Counted from the stretch's first letter, positions 1,829 through 54,107 are shown. The stretch is 64,000 nucleotides of DNA from Candidatus Woesearchaeota archaeon (GCA_964419925.1 CAYQPR010000001.1:34865-98864); one strand, 5' to 3'. Notes: generated by a model not told the origin, from the letters alone. Translations and numbers: made by a program.

Positions 1829-2179
1829 TCAATTTAGATTAATTGTTTTTAACCTTAAGTTATCTTTTTCTGCAATAATTTTAAGAATTTTTTCATTACT
1901 AATCAGCCTAATGATATTTTCAGGATCATTAGAAGTAATAATTCCATTAATTTTTATTACTCTTTTCTCAAGCTCATTTTTCACTTCATTAAAATATCTT
2001 CCATCAAACATGATATGTGGATTTTCTAAAGAATCATAAACGATATGCATAAAATAATCATCTCTCTTTTGGAAACCATCACTCGCTAATTCTTCTTTGA
2101 TTAATTCATTAAGTTTTATATCTAAATAACCCTCAAGGTGACAATTTTTTGAAAGTAATACTAATGCATAGCTACTCAT
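1829..2179 (-). CDS. hypothetical protein
   Basis: 116-aa ORF separated by 1 nt from the upstream gene, suggesting operon context. Confidence 0.3.
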   Translation of the reverse strand: MSSYALVLLSKNCHLEGYLDIKLNELIKEELASDGFQKRDDYFMHIVYDSLENPHIMFDGRYFNEVKNELEKRVIKINGIITSNDPENIIRLISNEKILKIIAEKDNLRLKTINLN

Positions 2180-2370
2180 TTTCGTTCAACAATAATCTCT
2201 TCTAATGGATTATAATTTAAATTAATTTTTTCTAAATCTTTTTTATTATACTCTTTATTTTTGCTATAACTTTGACAGCCATCGCTTTCGGATAACGCTA
2301 ATAATCCAGTTAAACCTGCAACTATAAAAAAATAATTTAATCCTCTTCCTCTAATTGAATCATATTTCAT
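2176..2370 (-). CDS. small hypothetical membrane/secreted protein
   Basis: 64 aa with a hydrophobic stretch (FFIVAGLTGLLAL). Overlaps its neighbour by 4 nt. Confidence 0.25.
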   Translation of the reverse strand: MKYDSIRGRGLNYFFIVAGLTGLLALSESDGCQSYSKNKEYNKKDLEKINLNYNPLEEIIVERK

Positions 2371-2371
2371 C

Positions 2372-2566
2372 TTAAGCTACCTTCTCATCTAAACTTTTTT
2401 TAGATTTTACTTCTTTTTCTATATCTACACCTAACTCTTTTAAGGCTTTCATATGTGCTTGAATCAAAGTGTTTACAATTGTTAAAATTCTTTCAAATTC
2501 TTGTTTTTCTTTAATTAATGTTGTTAAACTTCCTTTATGAAATCCTACTTGTTCTGAATTTGTCAT
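2372..2566 (-). CDS. small hypothetical protein
   Basis: 64-aa ORF packed between neighbours with 1-nt spacing. Confidence 0.25.
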   Translation of the reverse strand: MTNSEQVGFHKGSLTTLIKEKQEFERILTIVNTLIQAHMKALKELGVDIEKEVKSKKSLDEKVA

Positions 2567-2968
2567 TTAATTTTCCTCCATTGACTCCCTTAATCGTTCT
2601 ATTTCTATCCCTTCTTTAAATATCCTTTTTGTTTGTTCATATGCTATATTAATTAAGGTTTTATATTCTCTTTGATCTTTATGATTATGAATCTCATTAA
2701 ACAAATCAACTAATTTATCTAAACTTTTAATTCGACTATTTACTTCTTTAGAAATGTCATTTGGTTTGAATTGAGGATATTTTTCAAAATATTTTTTCAC
2801 TGGCGAAACTATAAACTTTTTTATTTCTCTTTCTGGATTTTTTCTATCCGTGTCTAACATTATTCCTATAGCACAAAAGGTATTAATATAATCTTGGTAA
2901 AACTCATGATCTCCTTCTTTTAGGATTCCATTTAAATAATATGATTCTTCTACCATTTTAATTACCAC
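2567..2968 (-). CDS. hypothetical protein
   Basis: 133-aa ORF in the same minus-strand run. Confidence 0.3.
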   Translation of the reverse strand: MVIKMVEESYYLNGILKEGDHEFYQDYINTFCAIGIMLDTDRKNPEREIKKFIVSPVKKYFEKYPQFKPNDISKEVNSRIKSLDKLVDLFNEIHNHKDQREYKTLINIAYEQTKRIFKEGIEIERLRESMEEN

Positions 2969-3020
2969 TAGAAAGTCACAAATATTGTTTATAAACCTTT
3001 CTATTTATTAAAAAATTATT

Positions 3021-3368
3021 TTATTGGGTATCTTCTTGAGACTTATCTATCGAAATACTATTTTTTGTTATAAAATATAAATTATTTGTTAAACCAATTA
3101 TTTTAGAATTAGATAATTCGCATGTTTTTTTTAATTCATTTAAAACCTCTTTAAGATCTTCTCTGTTGCCTACGAACCTATGCATTTTAACCAATGCAAT
3201 TGATTTCTCTTTTATTATGTGTTCTGTTATTGAACTCATCTCACTTTTTTTAACAATATCAAATATTTTTAAAATATAATCTGGCTTTATCTCTTGAGCT
3301 TCTTCTGATTTTATTTCCCTTTCTTCAGAAATCTCATTCTCAAAAAATAAATCTTTAAACCATGACAT
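3021..3368 (-). CDS. hypothetical protein
   Basis: 115-aa ORF, acidic N-terminus. Confidence 0.3.
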   Translation of the reverse strand: MSWFKDLFFENEISEEREIKSEEAQEIKPDYILKIFDIVKKSEMSSITEHIIKEKSIALVKMHRFVGNREDLKEVLNELKKTCELSNSKIIGLTNNLYFITKNSISIDKSQEDTQ

Positions 3369-3369
3369 T

Positions 3370-3720
3370 TTAAAGCTTCCTTGATTTTATTGTATTTGTC
3401 ATATTATCTATTCTAATCATTGTTGTTTGAGGAATTTGATAATTTTTTTCTTTTGCTTTTTCAACTTCTTTTAAGAAACTTTGCTCTGCATTTTTTAAAT
3501 CATAATACAAATTGAAATAACTATTACTTCCAGTTTTCATCTTTTTTCTTATTTCTTCAATTTTTTGCATAGAGTTCTCAATGCTTCTTTGAGGTAAGTT
3601 AACAATCTTAACTTCTTCAACTTTTTTAACTTCTTTTCTTTGATAAATTTCAGGAGTAGGTCTATTTTCTTGAGATTTTAACCTTTTTAATACGTCAACT
3701 GTTCTTTCCCTTTCATACAT
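3370..3720 (-). CDS. hypothetical protein
   Basis: 116-aa ORF, 1-nt spacing to the downstream gene. Confidence 0.3.
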   Translation of the reverse strand: MYERERTVDVLKRLKSQENRPTPEIYQRKEVKKVEEVKIVNLPQRSIENSMQKIEEIRKKMKTGSNSYFNLYYDLKNAEQSFLKEVEKAKEKNYQIPQTTMIRIDNMTNTIKSRKL

Positions 3721-3732
3721 ATTATACCTCTT

Positions 3733-4473
3733 TTATGCGTAAAATCTACCAATTTGTTCTGATGAGAAATTCTCTTTTATGAATTGAACCATCATTTTAT
3801 TATCTGCCAACTCATAAATTCTCAATGCACTACCCATTAGCCCTGCTTTAAGTAATACATCTCCCAAGTTAGACAACTTATCTTTGTTTTGACCCAATTC
3901 ATATGCTCTTGCTGCATATCCATATCTATTTTCATTCAAACATTTATCACCTAATCTAATTAGTTTATCACGATTATTAAGTATTGCAAAAACTTCTATT
4001 GCTACATCAACTTTTTCCTTTTCTAAACAAACTTCTCCTAGTTTGATTAATCTAGGTTCATCTTTTAATATTGCAAATGCTCTTAAAGAATCTGAAAGAT
4101 GACCTTCAACGAGGCATTTTTCTCCACATGAAATTAATTTTGTTTTATCTTCTGAAAAGTTATATGCTAAATTATAAATTTCTATTGCTTCGTTAAACTG
4201 ACCACGAGATGCAAATTCATTTCCTATCTCATTTATTTTTAATATATTTTTTGTTAGAACATAAGCCTTTACTGCTTGAGTAAAATCCCCCCTCTTGAAA
4301 AATTCATCACCGGCGGCGTTTAATAATCCTTTTCTAGTGTTATCATCAAACATATCTAAATTAACATTATCGATTCCTTTTTTTACAATACTAGGAACGA
4401 TTTTAGCGTATGAACCTGTTTGTTCATTTTCTTCAACCAATTTTTTTATATTCTTTGTTACATTATCTACCAT
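3733..4473 (-). CDS. TPR/Sel1-like repeat protein
   Basis: Repeating ~34-aa units with A/Y/L/G periodicity (AIEIYNLAYNF, AARAYELGQNKDKL, KLIRLGDKCL). A TATA-rich promoter region lies upstream at 4480-4560. Confidence 0.45.
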   Translation of the reverse strand: MVDNVTKNIKKLVEENEQTGSYAKIVPSIVKKGIDNVNLDMFDDNTRKGLLNAAGDEFFKRGDFTQAVKAYVLTKNILKINEIGNEFASRGQFNEAIEIYNLAYNFSEDKTKLISCGEKCLVEGHLSDSLRAFAILKDEPRLIKLGEVCLEKEKVDVAIEVFAILNNRDKLIRLGDKCLNENRYGYAARAYELGQNKDKLSNLGDVLLKAGLMGSALRIYELADNKMMVQFIKENFSSEQIGRFYA

Positions 4474-4596
4474 AGAATTACGAAAACGAAGGTTATATAT
4501 AAAGATTTTGTTTTATTTAAATATATTTTTTAAAAAATAGATAAATTTATATATCACTAGTTAAGTTTTCTTGAAAAATCTTTTAAGGAGGCAAAA

Positions 4597-4695
4597 ATGC
4601 TTAACGAAAAATTATTTGCTAAATGGGATGAAGCGGACGAAGAAGAGGACGAAAAAAAAGACGATTTTGAAGACGAAGAAGACGAAGAGTGGTAA
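4597..4695 (+). CDS. small highly acidic peptide (32 aa, MLNEKLFAKWDEADEEEDEKKDDFEDEEDEEW)
   Basis: ATG preceded 7 nt upstream by a strong Shine-Dalgarno (AAGGAGG at 4585-4591), clean stop, sits in an intergenic gap. Absent from the ORF track only because it is under 60 aa. Confidence 0.3.
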   Translation: MLNEKLFAKWDEADEEEDEKKDDFEDEEDEEW

Positions 4696-4775
4696 TTTTT
4701 CTTAATTTCTTTTTTTAATTAAGTCTACTCTTAAAAAGGAAAAGGTATTTATATTTATTTGTTTATTAAATAAGT

Positions 4776-5144
4776 ATGGTAACGGTAAATGTTTTGGTAT
4801 TATGTAAGTCATGCAAAGCTAAAGTTCCCGTCGGTGATTTGAAACAGGGAAAGGATGGAAAGTATATTTGTAGTACTTGTTATGAGCATGGTTATGTTTC
4901 TAATGTCATGCAGAATGTTTCTCCAGATAAATTAAAAAAGTTACAGGAGAAACCTCAACAACAAGTTAGTAACATTCAAGATGATAGGGTTTCTTATTTT
5001 TGCAATAATTGTAAGTTTAGTTTTACAAGACCATCCACGTCAGGTTATAGAGGATGTCCTTATTGTAATAAAGAGCATACGGTTCAGAAAAGAGAAAGTG
5101 CTCAAGATTTATTAAAAAATGTTGATGATTTTTTTAATGTTTAA
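4776..5144 (+). CDS. double zinc-ribbon protein
   Basis: Four CxxC pairs arranged as two ribbons (CKSCKA..CSTC and CNNCKF..CPYC). Confidence 0.45.
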   Translation: MVTVNVLVLCKSCKAKVPVGDLKQGKDGKYICSTCYEHGYVSNVMQNVSPDKLKKLQEKPQQQVSNIQDDRVSYFCNNCKFSFTRPSTSGYRGCPYCNKEHTVQKRESAQDLLKNVDDFFNV

Positions 5145-5385
5145 AATGACACTTGAAAATATTTTTTTAAATCCTGTATTTTTGTTTTTGATATTTTGGA
5201 GTTTAGTTTGGAAATATATCGCTTTATGGAAATGTGGAAGAAATAATCAATTAGGTTGGTTTATTGTTTTATGTGTTATTAATACTGCCGGAATTTTAGA
5301 AATTGTCTATTTATTATTTTTTAGAAAAAATATGAATAAGAAAATTGGACCTTTTAAAAAAAGTTCTATAAAAAAGAAAAAGTGA
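5119..5385 (+). CDS. small hypothetical membrane protein
   Basis: Two predicted TM stretches and a Lys-rich C-terminus. Overlaps the end of the upstream gene. Confidence 0.25.
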   Translation: MLMIFLMFKMTLENIFLNPVFLFLIFWSLVWKYIALWKCGRNNQLGWFIVLCVINTAGILEIVYLLFFRKNMNKKIGPFKKSSIKKKK

Positions 5386-7140: not shown

Positions 7141-7485
7141 ATGGCAGAGGTAAACAAAGAAATGCAAGAGAAAGCCTATGAAGCTGTTGAAGTAGCTAGG
7201 AAGACAGGCAAATTAAAAAAAGGTGTGAACGAAGTTACTAAGGTTGTTGAGAGAGGTCAAGCTAAATTAGTTGTTATTGCTAAAGATGTTAGTCCTCCTG
7301 AAATAATCATGCATCTACCTGTTTTGTGCGAAGAAAAAGAAATTCCTTACGTTTATGTTTCTAGCAGACAGGAACTAGGAAGTTCTGCAGGGTTAAATGT
7401 TTCTACTGTTGCTATTGCAATTATTAATGAGGGAGATGGAACACATTTGGTTAGAGAGCTAAAAGAAGCCTCTAAACAGAAATAA
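7141..7485 (+). CDS. rpl7ae: ribosomal protein L7Ae (kink-turn binding)
   Basis: Near-canonical L7Ae sequence ([39 protein letters not shown]). Confidence 0.9.
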
Positions 7486-46496: not shown

Positions 46497-46765
46497 ATTA
46501 CCATCCTGTAGAACTCAGATTCCCCGATAGTTGGACTTTTTCTAATTATTTTTATTATGTCACCTTTTTTTACATCTAAATTTATAACCGCTGGATCTTC
46601 TTTTAGAATTCTTGGAAGCTGTTTTTTTGATACGTTTAATTTTTTTACCAATTCGTCAGCCTCCTCTTCACTCAATTTTATGTGCTTAGGTACAAAGTTA
46701 TGTTTCTCAACGTTGATTTCTTGTTCCATTTTTTTTGGTATGAACGGGCCGGATGGGACTTTCAC
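46493..46765 (-). CDS. rpoH: RNA polymerase subunit H (Rpb5-like)
   Basis: HNFVPKH..LSEEEADEL..PAV..KGDIIKIIRKSPTIGESEFYRMVI. The true start is probably the internal Met at ~46729, because the first ~13 codons overlap the tRNA-Lys gene. Confidence 0.8.
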   Translation of the reverse strand: MKVPSGPFIPKKMEQEINVEKHNFVPKHIKLSEEEADELVKKLNVSKKQLPRILKEDPAVINLDVKKGDIIKIIRKSPTIGESEFYRMVI

Positions 46766-46841
46766 ATCGTTTTGAACCCACGACCACCTGCTTTCTTCTT
46801 TGCTTAAAAGGCAGGTGCTCTACCAAGCTGAGCTACCGGCC
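46744..46841 (-). tRNA. tRNA-Lys (anticodon UUU) carrying two ~12-nt insertions (putative introns) in the anticodon loop and T-loop
   Basis: Hand fold: GGGCCGG-TA-GCTC-AGCTTGGTA-GAGC-A-CCTGC-[CTTTTAA+GCAAAGAAGAAA]-GCAGG-TGGTC-GTGGG-[TTCAAA+ACGATGTGAAAG+T]-CCCAT-CCGGCCC-G. Removing the two inserts gives a canonical 74-nt tRNA. Confidence 0.55.
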
Positions 46842-47057
46842 CATCATCGTCGATATTTTTGAACAATCTTGCTATTTTTTAGTTTTAGCTGAAGTTATTT
46901 ATAGTTCTTACGGGCATAAATTTGTATCTGAAAACGTTTTTTGAACTTTTAGTCATTTTTTAGAAAGATTGTCCTTTTATCGATGATTTTTTTGCATTTT
47001 ATTGGTTTATAAAACTTTCTCTTCTTTTGATGTGCAAACAGGTTATATATAAAGGTT

Positions 47058-47090
47058 ACGGGCAAGTTGTATTGTTGCGTTAAAGGGATC
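47058..47090. repeat. copy A of a 27-33-bp repeat (acgggcaagttgtattgttgcgttaaagggatc)
   Basis: Identical 27-mer recurs at 51061-51087. Positions 47069-47090 recur reverse-complemented at 51039-51060. Confidence 0.6.
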
Positions 47091-47240
47091 TATTTATATA
47101 TCAAACATAATTTTTAATTTATATGGGTAGTGGAAAACGAAAATATAACCATCGAGTAAAATATATTCCAAAAGAGAAAAAATTAACTATGCCTAAAAAA
47201 GAAAATAAAGATCCACCAAATAAAGAAGATGTTGAAAAAC

Positions 47241-48113
47241 TTATAGCTTTGTTTGGAAAAAAGTAGGTTTATAGTTTGTTACAACAATCTCGTTAATTTT
47301 GCCTCTATCATTCCCATTACTATTAATCATCCTATTTGCCCTAACAATTTCAATATTATGCTCATTATACAAATTTTTAATAAATTCAGTGTCGCTATTG
47401 CTTAACATAACATTACAACCTTTTTTATGTAACTTCTTAAAGACTTGTGCTAATTGCTTTTGTTCATCTTCTAGAAAGTTATCCTTTGTATATGTAGTAA
47501 AGCTTTCTTTCTTTAAAGGCATATAAGGTGGATCAAAATAAATAAAATCTTTCTTTTTAGCATATTCTAAAACTTTTTCAAAAGACATATTTTTAATTTC
47601 AACATTCTTTAATAATTGAGATAATCGTCTTAACTCTGTTTCATTATATATCGATGGATTAACATAACTACCAATAGGGACATTAAAACCACCCTTTGAA
47701 TTAACACGATATAAACCATTAAAACAAGTCTTATTTAGATAAATAGTTCTTGACGCTCTTTCTATTTTATTTAATTCTTTAGGATTTAAATCTCTTATTT
47801 TATAGTAATATTCTGTATTATGTGCTTGTTTATGTTCCTTTAAGCTTAAAATTAATTCCTCAACATTATTTTTAATAACCTCATAACAATTCATTAACTC
47901 CTCATTTGTATCAGAAATTAAAACTTTCTTGGGATTATAAGTTTGTAATATATAAAACAAGACAGCTCCACCACCAACAAATGGTTCATAATAATTTTCT
48001 ATTTTTCTAGGAAAGAATTTTTGAAACTGTTTCAATAATTGCTTTTTACCACCAGCCCATTTTACAATAGTAGGAATTTCTACCCTTACCATATTTTTAT
48101 TAATAATTTTCAT
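47241..48113 (-). CDS. dam: Dam-type N6-adenine DNA methyltransferase (D12 class)
   Basis: Motif I VKWAGGKKQLL...EPFVGGGAV and motif IV IYFDPPYMP. No adjacent restriction endonuclease was recognised. Confidence 0.8.
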   Translation of the reverse strand: MKIINKNMVRVEIPTIVKWAGGKKQLLKQFQKFFPRKIENYYEPFVGGGAVLFYILQTYNPKKVLISDTNEELMNCYEVIKNNVEELILSLKEHKQAHNTEYYYKIRDLNPKELNKIERASRTIYLNKTCFNGLYRVNSKGGFNVPIGSYVNPSIYNETELRRLSQLLKNVEIKNMSFEKVLEYAKKKDFIYFDPPYMPLKKESFTTYTKDNFLEDEQKQLAQVFKKLHKKGCNVMLSNSDTEFIKNLYNEHNIEIVRANRMINSNGNDRGKINEIVVTNYKPTFFQTKL

Positions 48114-49090
48114 TTTTTTAAACCTTTTGATAATAAGATTAATTCAAGCCATCTATTATTATCTTCTAATTTTAATGTAGGAATTGCCAATTCATAAGGG
48201 CATTTATTTATTGCTTGATGAACCCTAATAAAATTATAATAAATTTCCCAACCTTTCATTATGCTTTGGGCAGAATACAAAGAGCCGTGAAATCCACGAA
48301 ATACTTTTGTTCTTGCTCTTACGTTGTTGTGCAATCTCTCTATTTTATGATTAAAACCTCTTTCATCAGCGATTACAATATTGTGAACTATTTTTGTTTT
48401 AGCTTCTCTTTTATGTAATCCAAAAGATTTGTTTAATGCTTTTCTATAAGCTTGTAAACCATCTGTTGTAACTACATTAACTTGTTCGCCTGTCTTTTGT
48501 TTTGCTACTTTTAAAACATTAGCCATATTCTCAATAGTTCTACTTTGTAAATAATCTGAAGCTACAATAAACCTTGTTTTTGTATCCATAACATCTACAA
48601 ACCAATTCTGTTCTACACCTAATTTTGCTTTATGACTTTTACGTCTTCTATATTCTACCTCATCACTCATTAACTCTTTACCAGCCTGAACATTTAATTT
48701 ATTTGTATAATCATTAATTAGATTAGAATATTTAACAACCCACCTATAAATTGTTGAGTTATTAGAATTGTGAGGATAAAAAGCTTGTAAATGTTTTTGT
48801 ATACTTCTTGTTGAAATACCTCTAAAAAATAGATCAAGACATAAAGTAATTTTGTTTTTTGAATTTTTCATTCGGCAGAATCCATCATCTAAAATGAAAT
48901 TCTTTCTGCAATTCTTACAGAAATATCTTTGTATATTACCTCTATTCTTGGTATACCTTAATCCTCTCTTCTTAGTATTTCGAGAATTACAATAAATACA
49001 GGAAACATTTTTATACTTGTTTTGATTATCCTTTGTAGGATCGATTTGTTCTTGACGGGACATTTTGATTCCTGTGGGCTTCACGCCCAC
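48110..49090 (-). CDS. IS6-family DDE transposase with an N-terminal zinc finger
   Basis: N-terminal CIYC..CKNC finger, and a C-terminal region (GFNHKIERLHNNVRARTKVFRGFHGSLYSAQSIMKGWEIYYNFIRVHQAI) that closely resembles the IS6/IS26/ISH14 transposase core. Confidence 0.75.
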   Translation of the reverse strand: MGVKPTGIKMSRQEQIDPTKDNQNKYKNVSCIYCNSRNTKKRGLRYTKNRGNIQRYFCKNCRKNFILDDGFCRMKNSKNKITLCLDLFFRGISTRSIQKHLQAFYPHNSNNSTIYRWVVKYSNLINDYTNKLNVQAGKELMSDEVEYRRRKSHKAKLGVEQNWFVDVMDTKTRFIVASDYLQSRTIENMANVLKVAKQKTGEQVNVVTTDGLQAYRKALNKSFGLHKREAKTKIVHNIVIADERGFNHKIERLHNNVRARTKVFRGFHGSLYSAQSIMKGWEIYYNFIRVHQAINKCPYELAIPTLKLEDNNRWLELILLSKGLKK

Positions 49091-49121
49091 TATTTATTTT
49101 TATTATTATTTTGAAAAGGTT
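48121..49121 (-). mobile_element. IS6-like insertion sequence (boundaries tentative)
   Basis: Imperfect 10-11-bp inverted termini, AACCTTTTGA at 48121-48130 and TTGAAAAGGTT at 49111-49121. ~1.0 kb fits the IS6 family. Boundaries are not firmly established. Confidence 0.35.
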
Positions 49122-49369
49122 GTTTCTATTGTTCCAGTATGCTTTATGTTATCTGTTCTTATCATTCCACAATTACCACATCTTTGAATAACTTTAATTT
49201 TGAAATTATCTGTTTCTTTAGTTACCAATTCAAATTTATGATTACAACTTTTAGCATTCTTTACTATTTCTTTAACTGCACTTTCTTTAGTTAATAATCT
49301 CTTCTTTATTTTAAATATTTCTACAATTTCGTTCTCTTCTTCACTTAAATCTATTTGTAATTGAACCAT
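49106..49369 (-). CDS. small C4 zinc-ribbon protein
   Basis: CNHKF...CGNCGM. Directly upstream of, and co-oriented with, the transposase. Confidence 0.3.
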   Translation of the reverse strand: MVQLQIDLSEEENEIVEIFKIKKRLLTKESAVKEIVKNAKSCNHKFELVTKETDNFKIKVIQRCGNCGMIRTDNIKHTGTIETTFSK

Positions 49370-49549
49370 ATATTATCACAATATATTGCAATATACACTA
49401 GTATATAAAGATTGTGGTAACTCATAATATATACCGTATAATAGGTGTATTAATATAATGTTGAAGAAAACAATCTTTGACTCAGAAATTTAGGTTTTAA
49501 TCAAACAAAACATTTATAAATACATATTATTAATAGAATTGATATTAAA

Positions 49550-49963
49550 ATGGTAAAAACCAAAATTAAAACAAAGTGGGGAAGCATAATTACAATAGAT
49601 GGATTACCAGAAGAAGTAAATGAAGTTTTAAGTCATTTTCAGCGACGAGAAATTTTTTTAAATGAAAGAATGAGTAGGGGGGCGGTTGTGCCATCTTATT
49701 CTTTACACGGACAAACTTTACTAAAAAATATCAGTCCGAAGATAGAAGTTGAAAAATTAATTGAAGAAAAATTTTTGGATGAATCTCGAACACTTCAAGA
49801 AATTAGAAATAAAATTTATTCTAAAACAGGGGGAATGATTCCAAATTCATCTTTACACCCAACATTAATGTATTTGATCAATAAAGATAAATTAATCAGA
49901 GAAAGATTAGAAAGCGGTTTATGGGGATACAAAAGATTAGAAAATAAAAATGTGGGCGAGTAG
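49550..49963 (+). CDS. hypothetical protein
   Basis: 137-aa ORF ending 9 nt before a tRNA-like gene. Confidence 0.3.
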   Translation: MVKTKIKTKWGSIITIDGLPEEVNEVLSHFQRREIFLNERMSRGAVVPSYSLHGQTLLKNISPKIEVEKLIEEKFLDESRTLQEIRNKIYSKTGGMIPNSSLHPTLMYLINKDKLIRERLESGLWGYKRLENKNVGE

Positions 49964-50028
49964 TTTAGCATGGATAGAATGTGACCCTGCTAAGGTTAAG
50001 ATCGGGGGTTCAAATCCCCTCTCGCCCG
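49954..50028 (+). tRNA. tRNA-like gene, class-I cloverleaf with apparent anticodon GCU (isotype uncertain)
   Basis: Hand fold: GGGCGAG-TA-GTTT-AGCATGGATA-GAAT-G-TGACC-CTGCTAA-GGTTA-AGATC-GGGGG-TTCAAAT-CCCCT-CTCGCCC-G. A short variable arm is atypical for a Ser(GCU) tRNA. Confidence 0.5.
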
Positions 50029-50189
50029 AATTTATTTCACTTATGTGACCAAGTGAATGTGTTGTTATTTTTAAGTTAATAAAGGTATTTAAATCTTTTC
50101 TATTTAAATCAAAATAAGAATCATCATAAAAAATACCAACATCCCCTCTTTTAAACATATCATTTATAATCATAGGTAGTATATAAATT

Positions 50190-50366
50190 TTATTCATTTT
50201 TCTTTTTTAGTTTTTTTAATCCAACCCTTAAGAAAGCATTCTCGTCGAGTTCTAAATATTCGGCTTCATCTTTCGGTATCCATATTACAAAACTATTCCG
50301 AGATAATACAACCTTTTTTATGAAAACAGAATCAAATTCAGCCGTTACATTCTCTCTATCTTGCAT
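50190..50366 (-). CDS. small AbrB/MazE-like swapped-hairpin protein (possible antitoxin remnant)
   Basis: 58-aa ORF MQDRENVTAEFDSVFIKKVVLSRNSFVIWIPKDEAEYLELDENAFLRV... in a region with no annotated ORF. Confidence 0.25.
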   Translation of the reverse strand: MQDRENVTAEFDSVFIKKVVLSRNSFVIWIPKDEAEYLELDENAFLRVGLKKLKKKNE

Positions 50367-50452
50367 AGTATTGCTATGTATAGCATAGTATTTAAATCTT
50401 TCGTTGTTTTATTTTCTATGTAAGTAAACTTACAAACGACAAAATAATTTCT

Positions 50453-51001
50453 TTATCCACCAATCTGCGTTGCTTTGCTTACAATAACAAAAATTTCTTT
50501 TTCCTGAATCATTGCATCAATTAATTCTTTAAAAACGTATGCTGGTTTATCTGGTGGCATATTCTTTTCCATTTTAATCATTAGTTCTATTAAATGCCCA
50601 ATAAACTCTACTTTATATTCTCCGTATTTGTTAAGTTCTTCGAATGGTTTTAATTTTTCTTGAGTCGTTTCTTTCAATACAAAATTAGCTCTATTTTCTT
50701 TACTTTTGAATGCATCAACTTTATCATACATCTCTCTTAAATATTTCATAAATTTTATGGTTAATTCTGGGCTGTGCTGTTTTTTAATTAATAAATCAAT
50801 AACCCAATGAATATGTTTAGGAGTTCTAACCAATTTTCCTTTTTCTTTATATTTTATTATAATGTCGTGATCTTTAATAAATCCTCGATTACCCTCAAAA
50901 ACACCTATAATTGTTCCATCACTTAAAGGAATCTCTTTTATAGAATATTTTCTCGCTGGTTTCGTTGTTTCTCCTTTTTTCTTTCTAGGTTGAAATTCCA
51001 T
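50453..51001 (-). CDS. hypothetical protein
   Basis: 182-aa ORF, basic N-terminus. Confidence 0.3.
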   Translation of the reverse strand: MEFQPRKKKGETTKPARKYSIKEIPLSDGTIIGVFEGNRGFIKDHDIIIKYKEKGKLVRTPKHIHWVIDLLIKKQHSPELTIKFMKYLREMYDKVDAFKSKENRANFVLKETTQEKLKPFEELNKYGEYKVEFIGHLIELMIKMEKNMPPDKPAYVFKELIDAMIQEKEIFVIVSKATQIGG

Positions 51002-51038
51002 GAAATCAATAGGAAAGAATACTTTTTAAGGTTTTTTA

Positions 51039-51087
51039 GATCCCTTTAACGCAACAATACACGGGCAAGTTGTATTGTTGCGTTAAA
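51039..51087. repeat. copy B of the repeat, here a complete palindrome (16-bp arms, 11-nt loop)
   Basis: gatccctttaacgcaacaatac / acgggcaagtt / gtattgttgcgttaaa. The right arm plus loop equals 47058-47084. Confidence 0.6.
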
Positions 51088-51124
51088 TCTATTATTATGT
51101 GATTTTATGTATTAATTATTTAAT

Positions 51125-51501: not shown

Positions 51502-52164
51502 TTAGTTCATTAACAAAAATTTTTCTAATAATCTAAATCCAGTTAATCCCTTGAATTTACCTCCTGGAATTTTTACACACAACTCTAATTCAGAATGTGA
51601 GATTTTGTCTACAATAATATTTATAGCATTATTAAGGTGTTGCCCTCCTTTAAAACCTGAAAATAGAAATGTCATCTTTTTAACAAAATCATCTGATCTA
51701 GAATAAATATTTACGACTTTTATTTTTTTTGGAAATTCTATCTTTTTGTTTGCATTGATGGAGCTAACAAGAATTAATTTTTCTGGAAAATTTTTTATTT
51801 TTTTCTCGCTAAAAACTTTTTGTATTAGATGTCCTCCAAAACTAAAACAGATTATATCATATGGTTTATTTAATGTTTTTAAAGTTTTTTCTATAACTTT
51901 TGTGTTGGATGGCTCAAGAATATTAATAATCCTTCTTCGATATTTAATAAAATAAATATTATCATAATGTTTCGATAATCTGTCGATAAGAATCTTATAG
52001 CCACTATCTGGGTTTGATTTTAAACCAAAATAACTACGTAAAGAATTATATATTTTTCTCAGTATAACATTTTTTAAATTTAAATGTCTTGCTCCAGGTA
52101 TAATAACGAGATCTTTATTTTTTGAATTAGTTTTTATCATTTTAGATAAAAATAAAGTAGGCAC
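51502..52164 (-). CDS. alpha/beta-hydrolase-like protein
   Basis: GxSxG nucleophile elbow (ICFSFGGHL). Confidence 0.4.
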   Translation of the reverse strand: MPTLFLSKMIKTNSKNKDLVIIPGARHLNLKNVILRKIYNSLRSYFGLKSNPDSGYKILIDRLSKHYDNIYFIKYRRRIINILEPSNTKVIEKTLKTLNKPYDIICFSFGGHLIQKVFSEKKIKNFPEKLILVSSINANKKIEFPKKIKVVNIYSRSDDFVKKMTFLFSGFKGGQHLNNAINIIVDKISHSELELCVKIPGGKFKGLTGFRLLEKFLLMN

Positions 52165-52417
52165 TTACCACTAAAATTACTAGTACCAGTAAGAATATTG
52201 TTAAAGCTCTATTTGAATCCCAATCTTTTACGTCTCTTCTCTCAGAAGTTAATTCATCATTTCTTGTTCTATTTTCATCAGTTGTTTTATCGGCTCTAGA
52301 TCTTCTCTCAGAAGTTAATTCATCGTTTCTCGTCCGATTGTCTTTTGTTATTTTGTCTATCGTCTCTCTTCTTTCCATTGTTGCTAGGTCATTTTTCATT
52401 CTTTGATTGTTTGTCAT
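52142..52417 (-). CDS. small repeat-containing protein with a C-terminal TM anchor
   Basis: Internal tandem repeat (DNRTRNDELTSERRSRADKTT / DENRTRNDELTSERRDVKDW), then the TM segment IFLLVLVILVVSAYFIFI. Confidence 0.3.
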   Translation of the reverse strand: MTNNQRMKNDLATMERRETIDKITKDNRTRNDELTSERRSRADKTTDENRTRNDELTSERRDVKDWDSNRALTIFLLVLVILVVSAYFIFI

Positions 52418-52517: not shown

Positions 52518-52832
52518 TTAAATTACTTTTTTAGAATAAACCCAAAGGGTGTTATAAAGATCAAGATATTCTCTTGCAATAATATCATTTTCGATTACAA
52601 TTGTGTGAATTGGATCAATCCAAAGAGTAATGTAGACACATTCCCCACATACAATTTGGGTTATTTGGGAAACCTTTGATTGTTGATTCTTAGGAAGAAG
52701 TCTCGCTTCTGTAAATTTTAGTTTACTCAGCATTTTAATCTCTTCTTCAGGAACTTTATAAAAAAGTAATTTAAGCTCGATGCTTTTTTTTATTCTTTCA
52801 AGGTGAAAGGAATGCATTAATCTATCATTCAA
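52518..52832 (-). CDS. hypothetical protein
   Basis: 104-aa ORF. Confidence 0.3.
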   Translation of the reverse strand: MNDRLMHSFHLERIKKSIELKLLFYKVPEEEIKMLSKLKFTEARLLPKNQQSKVSQITQIVCGECVYITLWIDPIHTIVIENDIIAREYLDLYNTLWVYSKKVI

Positions 52833-52871
52833 TATATTAATTATATTTTCGTTTTCTGCAAGACCATATAT

Positions 52872-53273
52872 TCAAATTTCTGAATTTTTTTCTAGTAGAC
52901 CAAATAAAATGCCCTTTACTACATTTAATCCTTCAAGCGTATAAACTTTTGGAGTTTTGCCCGATACATAAGTTTTTTTAATATAATTCATTGCTGATTT
53001 TAAGTTTTCTAGTTTATCTTTTTCTTCATTAAAAATTAAATCAGGTTGTAGTGCAACAAATATTTGTTTTCCGTCTTTATTCGAGAGATAAATAAGATTT
53101 TTTTCTTTAAGTTTTGTTAAAATATCATATACATTAGTCCTATGCATTTTTGTTCTTTTTGAAACTTGTGTTGCATTGGAATTTTTATTTTTTAGAATAT
53201 CAAGATAAACAATCGTCTGCATTTTTGGTATGCCTATCGATTCAAAAGCCTTTAAGATATTTTCATCAGTCAT
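52872..53273 (-). CDS. TrmB/MarR-like winged-helix transcriptional regulator
   Basis: N-terminal HTH (IVYLDILKNKNSNATQVSKRTKMHRTNVYDILTKLKEKNLI). Confidence 0.45.
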   Translation of the reverse strand: MTDENILKAFESIGIPKMQTIVYLDILKNKNSNATQVSKRTKMHRTNVYDILTKLKEKNLIYLSNKDGKQIFVALQPDLIFNEEKDKLENLKSAMNYIKKTYVSGKTPKVYTLEGLNVVKGILFGLLEKNSEI

Positions 53274-53459: not shown

Positions 53460-54107
53460 TTAAAGTTTGTTATTTAAACCCTGGATGAGTTTTTCTTGTT
53501 TTCTTTTAAGATTAAATCCAATAAGTTTACTAAACTTTTTAACTTCCTTTTTTCTATTTACAACGATTGCAAAGACGTTTCTTTTTAAACCATATCCTTT
53601 AGCTAGTCTGGAATAAATACCAAATTTTTCTAATAAACTTTTTAGCTGTAAAAGACCTTTTTTATTTATAGAATATAACCTAATTTCAATACTATTTGTT
53701 TTATTATTACAAATTACCGAACCTTCGTCGTCATAAAATGCCCTTAGGAATTCTGTTTTAATTTTATTACTTGACTTTTTTATTTGATTTGGTAAACTCC
53801 AATTATAGGATCTATAATTTCCATATCTTAGTAAGTCTTCATAAACTTTTTTTGAATATAAATTAACAAATGGTATCCATTCATTTGTTTTTCCAGAAGG
53901 ATTTAATCCTCTTGTCATTTTTAGCCCATATACTAAATAAATATCTTTTTCAAAATTTTTTAACGATTCTTCGTCTTTGACTTCGTATCTTATGCGATAA
54001 TTATGTCTGCTTTTATTTATCGAACCATCTGCCATAAGTCTTGCGATTATTCTTGCTTTTGGAATTGAAAGCATAAAACTATTTTGACGAATAAGATTTA
54101 TTCTCAT
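53460..54107 (-). CDS. free-standing LAGLIDADG-type homing-endonuclease-like protein (two motifs)
   Basis: IIARLMADGSI and LRAFYDDEGSV match the two LAGLIDADG motifs at ~100-aa spacing. Confidence 0.5.
   Translation of the reverse strand: MRINLIRQNSFMLSIPKARIIARLMADGSINKSRHNYRIRYEVKDEESLKNFEKDIYLVYGLKMTRGLNPSGKTNEWIPFVNLYSKKVYEDLLRYGNYRSYNWSLPNQIKKSSNKIKTEFLRAFYDDEGSVICNNKTNSIEIRLYSINKKGLLQLKSLLEKFGIYSRLAKGYGLKRNVFAIVVNRKKEVKKFSKLIGFNLKRKQEKLIQGLNNKL

Follow-up and report, generated by a model that had tools for sequence, protein, structure and literature searches.

This locus raises the question of why a segment of about 4 kb in a woesearchaeal genome should be bracketed by an exact direct repeat close to a tRNA gene. 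The window, meaning the whole 64-kb stretch of DNA that was analyzed, contains exactly two copies of the 27-mer ACGGGCAAGTTGTATTGTTGCGTTAAA, at 47058-47084 and 51061-51087, as the preliminary description had reported. That description took the arrangement for an integrated element, or for the scar of a recombination event, with att-like repeats beside a tRNA. Our analysis suggests a different answer: the segment is very probably a 3,994-bp unit transposon, which belongs to a promoter-targeting family of DPANN archaea and probably re-used the site of an older element.

The boundaries are marked by a perfect 25-bp inverted repeat. Its transposase-distal arm, TGTATTGTTGCGTTAAAGGGATCTA, lies at 47068-47092 on the plus strand (scored at 32.3 by the PWM of the family's ends), and the complementary, transposase-proximal arm lies at 51037-51061 on the minus strand; both contain GATC. 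An inverted arm had been noted before and is real, but it is slightly longer than was stated. A 9-bp target-site duplication, CGGGCAAGT, brackets the element between these ends (47068-51061), with identical copies at 47059-47067 and 51062-51070. The 27-mer is a composite. Its first base is the last one of the flank or of the right end, the next nine are the duplication, and the remaining 17 nt come from a relic third end. At the second site a local hairpin is present, with 17-bp rather than 16-bp arms (51045-51061 and 51071-51087) and a 9-nt loop. An independent Logan assembly of run SRR8863434 also contains site 1 (L001), and a different contig from that run contains site 2 (L097). An empty site for the window locus was sought but not recovered, so the mobility of the window copy rests on its perfect ends, its duplication and the behavior of its family.

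The 17-bp stem possible at site 2 would also suit a dispersed REP-like element or an intrinsic terminator hairpin, a reading that we regard as having practically no probability. No further copy of the 27-mer with up to three mismatches was present in the window, nor in any of 100 shuffles, and the repeat had no match in Rfam. Elsewhere the motif forms inward-facing pairs around a transposase gene, and in DPANN it is dispersed only as transposon ends. The repeat itself is GC-richer than its surroundings, as had been observed, but the block is not: the GC content inside it (26-28%) is no different from that around it.

The whole 4 kb, including a methyltransferase, a tRNA and several unknown ORFs, is a transposon with its own cargo of about eight genes. 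The transposase is a DDE enzyme of 317 aa (48110-49063, minus strand), in which an N-terminal zinc ribbon with an invariant four-cysteine motif precedes a DDE core whose residues D134, D201 and E242 were invariant in the alignment. Its stop codon overlaps the start codon of a gene for a Dam-family N6-adenine DNA methyltransferase (47241-48113, minus strand; PF02086, E=6e-69; TIGR00571, 306 bits with a cutoff of 115), which is 66% identical to the Dam cargo of another element (L057). A basic 47-aa ORF from the ORF list (47123-47266, plus strand) has its own TATA (TTTATATA, 47092-47099) 23 nt upstream and no match in a Pfam search. The 87-aa ORF (49106-49369, minus strand) contains a CxxH...CxxC motif and weakly matches cargo of L074; its zinc-ribbon matches in Pfam were all below threshold. 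Three further cargo genes come from the ORF list: a 137-aa ORF (49550-49963, plus strand) with no family match in Pfam or NCBIfam, a 58-aa ORF (50190-50366, minus strand) that looks AbrB-like by eye only and has no Pfam match, and a 182-aa ORF adjoining the right end (50453-51001, minus strand), which is 68% identical to a 177-aa cargo ORF of element L067 and found no match in Pfam or NCBIfam. The Dam, DDE transposase and tRNA-like genes of the preliminary description were recovered, whereas its "AbrB-like" remnant and "zinc-ribbon companion" had no significant Pfam support. The cargo tRNA gene (49954-50028, plus strand; ARAGORN; Rfam tRNA, 61 bits) has the anticodon GCU and a short variable arm. 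Its body is nearest to a tRNA-Arg, with 72% identity to the tRNA-Arg(TCG) of L065, and no other element carried a tRNA (54 loci checked).

On the host side, a gene for tRNA-Lys(UUU) with two 12-nt introns (46745-46842, minus strand; Rfam tRNA, 51 bits, the alignment having two 13-nt insertions; missed by ARAGORN) lies directly upstream of rpoH. It is 216 bp from site 1, in agreement with the earlier figure of about 220 bp. A direct repeat bracketing accessory genes at this distance from a tRNA is what spoke for site-specific integration, which now appears very improbable. No recombinase of the tyrosine or serine type turned up when the ORFs of the block and its neighbours were searched against Pfam and NCBIfam, and the repeat neither overlaps the tRNA-Lys gene nor shares sequence with it. 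Moreover, the repeat splits into a 9-bp duplication and transposon ends, and in 48 members of the family the 9-bp duplication differs from one unrelated locus to the next. What survives of the original idea is a mobile element with the repeats marking its boundaries; it has neither an integrase nor an att site, and its target was not the tRNA but a BRE/TATA promoter, which 5 bp separate from the left duplication.

The transposase has more than 1,400 homologues in DPANN archaea. For a census we took about 80 related loci from different DPANN MAGs and scored them with a PWM of the 24-nt end. Essentially one inward-facing match was found on each side of the transposase at these loci, giving 58 pairs of ends. 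Perfect 9-bp duplications flanked 48 of the 55 testable pairs, with 8 of 9 positions matching in four more, and the duplications all differed between elements and lay at unrelated loci. An identical transposase (P0093) was present in two different contexts (L102 and L106). Element sizes ranged from 1,890 to 8,521 bp, always with extra ORFs. The transposase alone was universal (52/52 elements); methyltransferases were found in 12 of the 52, and other cargo included R-M systems, NUDIX, TrmB, ParE and toxin genes. The family thus has the general hallmarks of DDE transposons, namely terminal repeats, a duplication of fixed length, an intact DDE triad and multiple independent sites, as well as that of unit transposons, with non-transposition genes that lie between one pair of ends and differ between copies. 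In the literature searched we found no earlier description of such a family, which is widespread in DPANN archaea and apparently undescribed so far.

The transposase had been assigned to the IS6 family. IS6 is indeed its best family model, but the score was below the cutoff, as it was for every IS-family model (IS6 model NF033587, 69.1 bits, cutoff 125; IS1 model NF033558, 38 bits, cutoff 100). The match to PF13610 was borderline (27.2 bits, gathering score 27), and that to the IS1/IS1595 zinc-binding domain NF050000 fell just under its cutoff (25.6 versus 28 bits). Judged by sequence, the transposase is distantly IS6/IS1-like, and the genes around it, listed separately before, are all part of one cargo transposon.

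Like IS6/IS26, the family has a single DDE transposase and short terminal inverted repeats, and it duplicates a small, fixed number of target bases. The TTGTTGC core of its ends may also resemble the IS6 consensus (CTGTTGCAAA-like). Unlike IS6/IS26, it has an additional N-terminal zinc ribbon, ends that do not begin with GG and a promoter-specific target. Its ends are 24-25 bp long and start with TGY/TAC; IS6 repeats are short (14-20 bp) and start with GG, and a single ORF fills the compact IS6 element. IS6 elements typically duplicate 8 bp and are 0.7-0.9 kb in size (PMC7986276), whereas the window family duplicates 9 bp and spans 1.9-8.5 kb with internal cargo. The archaeal IS6 clades compared were those of halophiles, Sulfolobus and Pyrococcus, and Harmer and Hall (PMC6807381) argue against placing even the known archaeal ISs in IS6. 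With IS1, including its single-ORF archaeal members, the family shares an N-terminal IS1/IS1595-type zinc-binding domain, a DDE core and a 9-bp duplication. IS1 target duplications are 8-9 bp. In contrast to IS1, there is no InsA/InsB frameshift in the window transposase (the 317-aa ORF is uninterrupted), the ends are unrelated, and the family carries cargo and targets promoters. Cargo inside one repeat pair and a single transposase are also features of bacterial tIS and Tn3-like unit transposons, which differ in host domain, transposase lineage and the presence of a resolvase, absent from the window family. According to Krupovic et al. 2019 (PMC6563490), no transposons with passenger genes had been detected in archaea.

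The sequence next to the left duplication contains a host promoter on the minus strand (P1, 47046-47058), with the TATA TATATAAA at 47046-47053 and the 5-nt BRE-side spacer GGTTA at 47054-47058. The TATA reads TTTATATA in the leftward direction, and the promoter faces tRNA-Lys/rpoH, with the element behind it. Taken along the promoter, the BRE pattern (G-T-A-A-C-C-TTTATATA) fits the target logo of the family. Exactly 14 nt separate this TATA 8-mer from the tip of the element's end, and the left duplication is 5 bp away. P1 is conserved at two orthologous loci (L002 and L004). No protein gene starts 21-22 nt downstream of the targeted TATA in the window, L002 or L004; P1 might produce a small RNA or a leader for tRNA-Lys/rpoH.

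This spacing was found throughout the family. Among 102 flanks, 51 had a TATA-like 8-mer ending at this exact offset of 14 nt from the end tip, with 0-6 flanks at nearly all other offsets and 13 at offset 16; the TATA patterns for this count were picked after the data had been seen, and a pattern-free, position-by-position base profile gave the same signal. At least one side had the offset-14 TATA in 45 of 52 elements, and both sides in six. A further independent site (L094) has identical TATA spacing. At 28 of 50 TATA flanks, versus 3 of 51 non-TATA flanks, a long ORF directed away from the element started at a distance of 20-45 nt, counted from the TATA at the TATA flanks, and in 18 of the 28 the start was at exactly 21-22 nt. 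By their N-terminal sequences, the genes behind targeted promoters are unrelated host genes (SerRS, TFB, ribosomal proteins, glycosyltransferases). The spacer BRE signature (A at -3 and -4) is shared with 298 untargeted leaderless promoters, and frequencies at targeted promoters exceeded the average for G at -6 (0.60 versus 0.27) and A at -4 (0.87 versus 0.62). Judging from these flanks, the family appears almost always to insert directly upstream of BRE/TATA promoters, with the TATA and the start of the duplicated 9-mer 5 bp apart. Part of the promoter bias is probably due to survivorship, since genic insertions are lost, but survivorship cannot account for the exact 5-bp spacing.

Family members insert through cuts staggered by 9 bp, and the duplicated 9-mer occupies a constant position, roughly -36 to -44 relative to the transcription start; the promoter stays intact and faces away from the inserted element. 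In the mechanism that we propose, the transposase would find the site either by reading BRE/TATA directly or by docking on promoter-bound TBP/TFB. Docking has a parallel in mode only: the yeast element Ty3 and the Dictyostelium elements TRE5-A and DGLT-A use TFIIIB (TBP plus the TFIIB-like Brf1) to integrate at a set distance from Pol III promoters. The likeness lies in a nucleotide-precise distance from a basal promoter element, which spares genes, keeps the promoter usable and lets the same promoter be hit repeatedly. These are eukaryotic retroelements, using integrase or LINE machinery, for which tethering to the factors has been demonstrated, whereas the window family is a prokaryotic DDE DNA transposon. 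By analogy, we hypothesize that its transposase might be tethered to TBP/TFB.

The other route to the same offset would combine a preference of the transposase for DNA around a GWAAGN-TTTATAAA-proximal motif with purifying selection against genic insertions, and it would involve no contact with the transcription machinery. We give this explanation slightly less than an even chance. Targeted promoters are more consensus-like than average, which agrees with direct recognition, but a strong BRE/TATA consensus is also the best recruiter of TFB/TBP. About 13-17 TATA flanks lack a nearby gene start and would fit motif recognition at non-promoter sites, and the six elements with the motif on both sides are what a two-fold symmetric transpososome predicts. 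Direct recognition is an alternative for the recognition step and leaves the identity of the element untouched.

Orientation relative to the promoter bears on yet another possibility, that the 25-bp inverted repeats bound an invertible segment, a recombinational switch. The perfect identity of the two arms in the window would suit this, and inversion would account for the opposite direction of the transposase relative to rpoH in the window and L002; more generally, gene order relative to the flanking promoter is opposite between the window and L002, L004 and L010. We nevertheless judge a switch highly improbable. No invertase is present, and both orientations occur with fresh duplications at unrelated loci (TATA on the transposase-upstream side in 30 cases and on the downstream side in 20), as expected for orientation-independent insertion.

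The transposon reading leaves the second site to be explained, where the right duplication is followed by a relic third end, TGTATTGTTGCGTTAA[4-bp deletion]ATCTA (51071-51091, plus strand; PWM score 10.9, background p about 1e-4). Aligned with the left end, it is the full 25-bp repeat minus AGGG, and homology stops there. The 27-mer repeat and the site-2 hairpin exist because this relic end abuts the right duplication. Junctions of the type "end-9 bp-end" were found at three loci (window, L004 and L088), all on the TATA-distal side, and the orthologous promoter is occupied by a different member of the family in each of the window, L002 and L004. To the right of the stump, we found neither a second copy of CGGGCAAGT nor the far end of an older element. 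An older element at the same target, known from the 21-bp stump alone, appears to have inserted first and the present element second. The promoter, the 5-bp spacer and one copy of the 9-mer survive an insertion, which leaves the same site open to another hit. The present element would then have landed between the older one and the promoter, giving the order promoter, 5 bp, duplication, element, duplication, old end, and the older element would have decayed to its stump. The "end-9 bp-end" junction would thus arise because the same promoter was re-used.

Alternatively, the junction may be the remnant of a head-to-tail tandem duplication of one element, with most of the second copy later deleted. 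Such a tandem could have formed in one of two ways: unequal exchange at the 9-bp duplication, or an intermediate resembling an IS dimer or a circle junction. IS30, IS911 and IS21 are known to pass through intermediates with abutted ends. The stump in the window is identical to the element's own end over all 21 retained bases, and the abutting end in L088, which belongs to the "left-end" subtype, shares 23 of 24 positions with the left end of the L088 element itself. In L004, however, the abutting end (TACACTGGTGCGTAAGAGGGTGTT) is of a subtype unlike both ends of the adjacent element, which means that there at least two different elements are involved. In addition, the promoter-distal polarity of all three junctions is predicted by re-targeting but not by dimerization. 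Tandem duplication therefore seems unlikely, though it carries some weight, and we favor re-use of the promoter.

Among 57 elements, GATC occurred in the ends of only the two that carry Dam. GATC inside transposon ends is also a feature of IS10/Tn10, IS50/Tn5 and IS903, where these sites couple transposition to the methylation state. The window element differs in encoding its own Dam-family enzyme.

A final observation concerns the region beyond the stump. The 2.2 kb from the relic end to a tRNA-Asp are missing at the orthologous locus L002. This region contains a split TrmB-like regulator (133 aa and 104 aa; 52518-53273, minus strand; PF01978, E=2e-11), which is 30-36% identical to TrmB-like cargo in L048, L033 and L022 and may, tentatively, be decayed cargo of the older element.

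The AT-rich window (GC about 28%) comes from an archaeon, as indicated by the split rpoB gene, rpoH and a tRNA-Lys(UUU) gene with two introns at 46745-46842. The preliminary description had noted a 27-bp direct repeat with an inverted arm around a segment of about 4 kb. Both features are real. The 27-mer is present in exact copies at 47058-47084 (site 1) and 51061-51087 (site 2), without any other copy in the window when up to 3 mismatches are allowed, and a repeat finder identified a perfect 25-bp inverted repeat at 47068-47092 and 51037-51061. Site 1 has the layout A-CGGGCAAGT-[TGTATTGTTGCGTTAAAGGGATCTA>, and site 2 the layout <TAGATCCCTTTAACGCAACAATACA]-CGGGCAAGT-[TGTATTGTTGCGTTAA....ATCTA>. 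The segment thus measures 3,994 bp, with 25-bp terminal inverted repeats (TIRs) and a 9-bp direct repeat on either side. The right 9-bp repeat is followed by a third copy of the end (51071-51091), the 25-mer minus 4 bp (AGGG), after which homology stops. According to this layout, the 27-mer consists of 1 + 9 + 17 bases of three different things, and the hairpin at site 2 is the succession of right end, 9 bp and relic end. The proposal of an integrated element with att-like repeats next to a tRNA gene therefore gives way to TIRs, a target-site duplication (TSD) and a relic end. In base composition, the block is indistinguishable from its surroundings.

Contigs of the Logan collection (run SRR8863434) independently contained site 1 (L001) and, in a different contig, site 2 (L097). 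Exact look-ups of RpoH and of a 124-aa protein in the right flank, made in search of an empty site, returned the same strain only. A metagenome scan with the end sequence gave 3 matches, with no empty site and no second copy of the exact window element, and a scan of viral contigs gave 0 matches. Rfam searches of the 44-55 kb region at a permissive threshold found nothing beyond three tRNAs.

The sole mobility gene of the block (48110-49063) encodes a 317-aa DDE transposase with an N-terminal four-cysteine zinc ribbon and an intact triad (D134/D201/E242) that is invariant among its homologues. More than 1,400 homologues were found in Woesearchaeota, Pacearchaeota, Nanoarchaeota, Aenigmarchaeota and Parvarchaeota, the nearest being annotated as Woesearchaeota, Pacearchaeota and Nanoarchaeota, all DPANN lineages. 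In close relatives, the same end motif flanks the transposase gene on both sides. For a census, the transposase alignment was scanned against one genome per species, which yielded 80 more loci, and the end motif was searched as a 24-nt position weight matrix. Nearly every locus had one inward-facing match upstream and one downstream of the transposase gene, and almost none besides. Altogether 58 end pairs were obtained, spanning elements of 1,890-8,521 bp. A perfect 9-bp direct repeat flanks 48 of the 55 testable pairs, and 8 of 9 positions match in 4 more; the 9-mers all differ from one another. An identical transposase (P0093) was present at two different sites, L102 and L106. Together, the end pairs, the varied 9-mers and the two sites of P0093 identify a classical DDE transposon with TIRs and a 9-bp TSD, and we consider the identity and anatomy of the window element (47068-51061) very probable. 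The likeness of the window 9-mer CGGGCAAGT to CGGCGAGGT of locus L004 was considered as a conserved feature of the element and rejected, because these two are orthologous host sites and duplications elsewhere are unrelated.

Across the family, the two ends of an element differ consistently between the transposase-proximal side (usually ...TAAGCGGG or ...TCTACGGG) and the distal side (...TTAAAGGG or ...TTGTCGGG), suggesting that left and right ends differ in function. The window element has two identical ends, both belonging to the distal type.

The IS6 label given to the transposase in the preliminary description did not hold well. IS6 was the best model, at 69 bits versus a cutoff of 125, and IS481 (43 bits), IS1 (38 bits) and IS256 (34 bits) were likewise sub-threshold. 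A PDB sequence search with the family profile gave only a marginal match, to the IS256-family ISCth4 transposase. IS6 elements are normally 0.7-0.9 kb long, with 8-bp duplications and without internal cargo (PMC7986276). The known archaeal "IS6" elements are small insertion sequences of halophiles, Sulfolobus and Pyrococcus, whose IS6 membership has already been questioned (PMC6807381). A compact IS6 with ends close to the transposase gene was also considered, based on a 22-nt imperfect inverted repeat (48121-48142 and 49100-49121). This repeat is AT-rich and without a duplication, and 47068 and 51061 are the termini indicated by the family-wide end motif and the duplications. By the tests applied, the window element lies outside both IS6 and IS1, and represents a DDE unit transposon of a distinct lineage.

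In the first four loci inspected, one flank has a TATA-like box that stops exactly 14 nt (5 nt plus the 9-mer) short of the element end. A tally over 52 elements (102 flanks) puts the end of a TATA-like 8-mer at offset 14 in 51 flanks and at any other offset in 0-6, except for offset 16, where we attribute a count of 13 to TATATA periodicity. At least one side has the box in 45 of 52 elements, and both sides in 6. An unbiased per-position base profile gave the same TATA pattern. Since TTTATAAA is nearly palindromic, both promoter orientations were tested. No gene enrichment was detected beyond the far end of the element in this orientation test. On the near side, a long ORF starts 20-45 nt past the box and reads away from the element in 28 of 50 TATA flanks, versus 3 of 51 flanks without TATA, and in 18 of the 28 the start lies exactly 21 or 22 nt past the box. 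This is the spacing expected of leaderless archaeal mRNAs. Judged by their N-terminal sequences, the ORFs appear to be unrelated host genes (for seryl-tRNA synthetase, TFB, ribosomal proteins and glycosyltransferases, among others), and at L083 the targeted promoter serves a tRNA-Val gene. In the direction of the promoter, the TATA box is preceded by the pattern G-W-A-A-G-N, made up of the 5-nt spacer and the adjoining first bases of the 9-mer; 298 untargeted promoters of the same type from the same loci have the same A-rich BRE positions, in weaker form.

The fixed offset, the outward host ORFs and the BRE pattern together indicate that BRE/TATA promoters are the targets of the family and that insertion takes place immediately upstream of them. 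The 9-bp duplication covers positions -6 to -14 from the TATA box, or about -36 to -44 from the start site. After insertion the promoter is intact and points away from the element, which may lie in either orientation (30 versus 20). A captured promoter driving inward genes would be an alternative explanation for the flanking TATA boxes. It was rejected, as the host ORFs start 21-22 nt beyond the box and read away, and terminal cargo genes have TATA boxes of their own just inside the ends. Survivorship adds to the intergenic bias, but the exact 5-bp spacing is beyond its reach. As a statistical fact, we regard promoter-adjacent targeting as highly probable.

In the window, the targeted promoter (P1) is TATATAAA at 47046-47053, directed leftwards to tRNA-Lys and rpoH. 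At loci L002 and L004, the orthologous promoter holds different family members with different cargo, so that insertion has recurred at one host promoter. This bears on the third end. A first insertion would leave the promoter joined, through the 5-bp spacer, to one copy of the 9-mer. A site set by its distance from TATA would thus be reusable, a second insertion giving the order promoter, 5 bp, 9-mer, new element, 9-mer, old element. An empty site would read TATATAAAGGTTACGGGCAAGT and continue without a break into the relic end or the downstream DNA. Each element was checked, outward of both duplications, for an end-like sequence that begins exactly where the duplication stops. Three abutting ends were found (window, L004 and L088; background probability of each at most 1e-4), all on the promoter-distal side. 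The abutting end at L004 is of a subtype unlike the adjacent element's own ends, indicating that it derives from a different element. Given the promoter-distal junctions and this two-element case, we take 51071-51091 to be a stump left by an older element, and its origin by re-targeting of the same promoter is the explanation that we moderately favor. A tandem dimer followed by a deletion could also leave a third end in the window and at L088, but appears rather unlikely. A search to the right of 51091 for the far end of the older element or a third CGGGCAAGT found none. The 2.2 kb from the stump to tRNA-Asp are absent in L002, and they include a split TrmB-like gene (52518-53273) similar to TrmB genes carried by three other elements; this DNA may be what remains of the older element's cargo after decay.

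Mechanistically, the zinc-ribbon/HTH/DDE transposase would bind the 24-25-bp ends and make 9-bp staggered joins, and would choose its target either by direct reading of the BRE/TATA sequence or by docking on TBP/TFB. The targeted promoters are unusually consensus-like, and symmetric sites with two TATA boxes exist. The TBP/TFB footprint extends to about -42, which would place the insertion point at its upstream edge. The basal machinery (TBP/TFB at BRE/TATA), or its DNA signature, may be the ruler for integration of the family, a possibility that we put forward tentatively and at somewhat less than even chances. The same reservation applies to the idea that leaderless genes receive the elements precisely at the upstream border of their pre-initiation complex, and targeting by tethering to the factors, the strongest version, is also plausible without being the likelier case. 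The closest analogues in mode of action, without implied family membership, are the eukaryotic elements Ty3 and Dictyostelium TRE5-A, which TFIIIB directs to sites at a fixed distance from Pol III promoters. If the ruler reading is true, the family would be a prokaryotic counterpart of Ty3/TFIIIB targeting, and harmless build-up in gene-dense, reduced DPANN genomes, including repeated stacking at one promoter, would be understandable.

Only the transposase is universal (52/52 elements), and family members always carry variable cargo. In 38 of 52 elements, a conserved four-cysteine zinc-ribbon ORF of about 48 aa lies beside the transposase-proximal end, some 40 nt inward and divergent from the transposase (e.g., in the L047 element, L004 1730-1873 and L010 5733-5870). 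Its product may have an accessory or regulatory role in the family; the window copy lacks this ORF. N6/N4 DNA methyltransferases occur in 12 of 52 elements, and further cargo includes MvaI/BcnI- or BsaWI-type restriction enzymes, an Mrr fusion, and ParE, NUDIX, TrmB-like and AbrB-like genes. At L098 (276-1901) and L102 (5438-6758), the cargo comprises complete type II restriction-modification systems (an MvaI/BcnI- or BsaWI-type endonuclease with an N6/N4 methylase) and a ParE toxin, and the family thus spreads defence/addiction modules among DPANN archaea. The 182-aa ORF of the window, for which a look-up gave no record, is 68% identical to cargo of L067, and its Dam methylase 66% identical to cargo of L057. 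Because of this recurrence, the 4 kb are not an IS6 with neighbouring genes but the element's own payload.

Both window ends contain GATC (47087-47090 and 51039-51042), at the same position as in the ends of L057. GATC is present in both ends of 2/2 Dam-carrying elements (the window and L057) versus 0/55 others. The Dam genes of these two elements lie at different positions relative to the transposase, and the transposases are about 54% identical. Judged from sequence, the pairing suggests self-encoded methylation control of the ends, and some members may control their own ends in this way; alternatively, the two elements may share ancestry.

The tRNA-like cargo gene at 49954-50028 (+) has the anticodon GCU (Ser AGY codons), a 5-nt variable arm and discriminator G. 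tRNA-Ser has a long variable arm. The nearest match to the D-arm, variable loop and T-arm of the cargo gene (72%) is a tRNA-Arg(TCG) of L065. The gene may be a tRNA-Arg with a mutated anticodon, a recoding tRNA or a pseudogene. Scanning of 54 other loci found no tRNA inside an element.

Taken singly, the window element is an ordinary kind of thing, a transposon, for which precise anatomy (ends, duplication, cargo, relic) replaces a speculative att/tRNA story. The family consists of cargo transposons of archaea that insert with nucleotide precision upstream of BRE/TATA and can stack at a single promoter, three features in an apparently undescribed combination. As far as we found, nucleotide-precise placement 5 bp upstream of TATA is undescribed for any prokaryotic transposon. 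The open-access literature searched yielded no description of the family or of TATA-directed archaeal transposition, although such absence is not proof. According to a 2019 survey (Krupovic et al., 2019; PMC6563490), no archaeal transposon carrying passenger genes had been detected, and this class is now found in many DPANN lineages, with cargo spanning DNA methyltransferases, complete restriction-modification systems, toxins, regulators and, in the window, a tRNA. A 2026 survey of insertion sequences in 17,237 archaeal genomes mentions neither TATA boxes, promoters nor passenger genes. The placement offers a testable case of safe-haven targeting in tiny-genome organisms. Each insertion marks a BRE/TATA and may serve as a natural probe of promoter and pre-initiation-complex architecture in uncultivated archaeal lineages, and the placement is also a candidate tool for promoter-proximal DNA insertion.

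Several observations concern the surroundings. The tRNA-Lys(UUU) gene (minus strand), missed by ARAGORN, has two 12-nt introns, at the canonical 37/38 position and in the T-loop, and its L002 orthologue has the same structure. A second perfect BRE/TATA, GAAAGT-TTTATAAA, lies 40 nt downstream of P1 (about 47006-47019, minus strand). Neither promoter has a protein ORF downstream, the distance to tRNA-Lys being about 140-180 nt, and the two-promoter layout is conserved in L002 and L004. The interval 46843-47045, without an Rfam match, may belong to the tRNA-Lys/rpoH operon as a long leader, or encode a small RNA that is not annotated. Within it, TTACGGGCA (the end of the spacer together with bases 1-6 of the 9-mer; expected count 0.11) recurs at 46908-46916, 150 bp to the left, followed by TTGTAT; either chance or the very old trace of another insertion could account for this second copy. 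To the right, a 91-aa ORF (52142-52417, minus strand) has 33-nt periodic repeats (52235-52357) encoding ...TSERR...DENRTRNDEL..., followed by a hydrophobic C-terminal helix.

L086, a 7.4-kb contig with a family transposon at 2065-5289, has a 134-bp terminal inverted repeat (3-136 and 7258-7391; 132/134 identical) that is GC-richer than its surroundings and could reflect either a fold-back during assembly or the two ends of a linear element. A free-standing gene resembling those of LAGLIDADG homing endonucleases adjoins tRNA-Asp both in the window (53460-54107, minus strand) and in L002 (7517-8329), where it also has an HNH repeat. The rpoB'' gene of L002 (990 aa) contains an intein, and that of the window (494 aa) does not.
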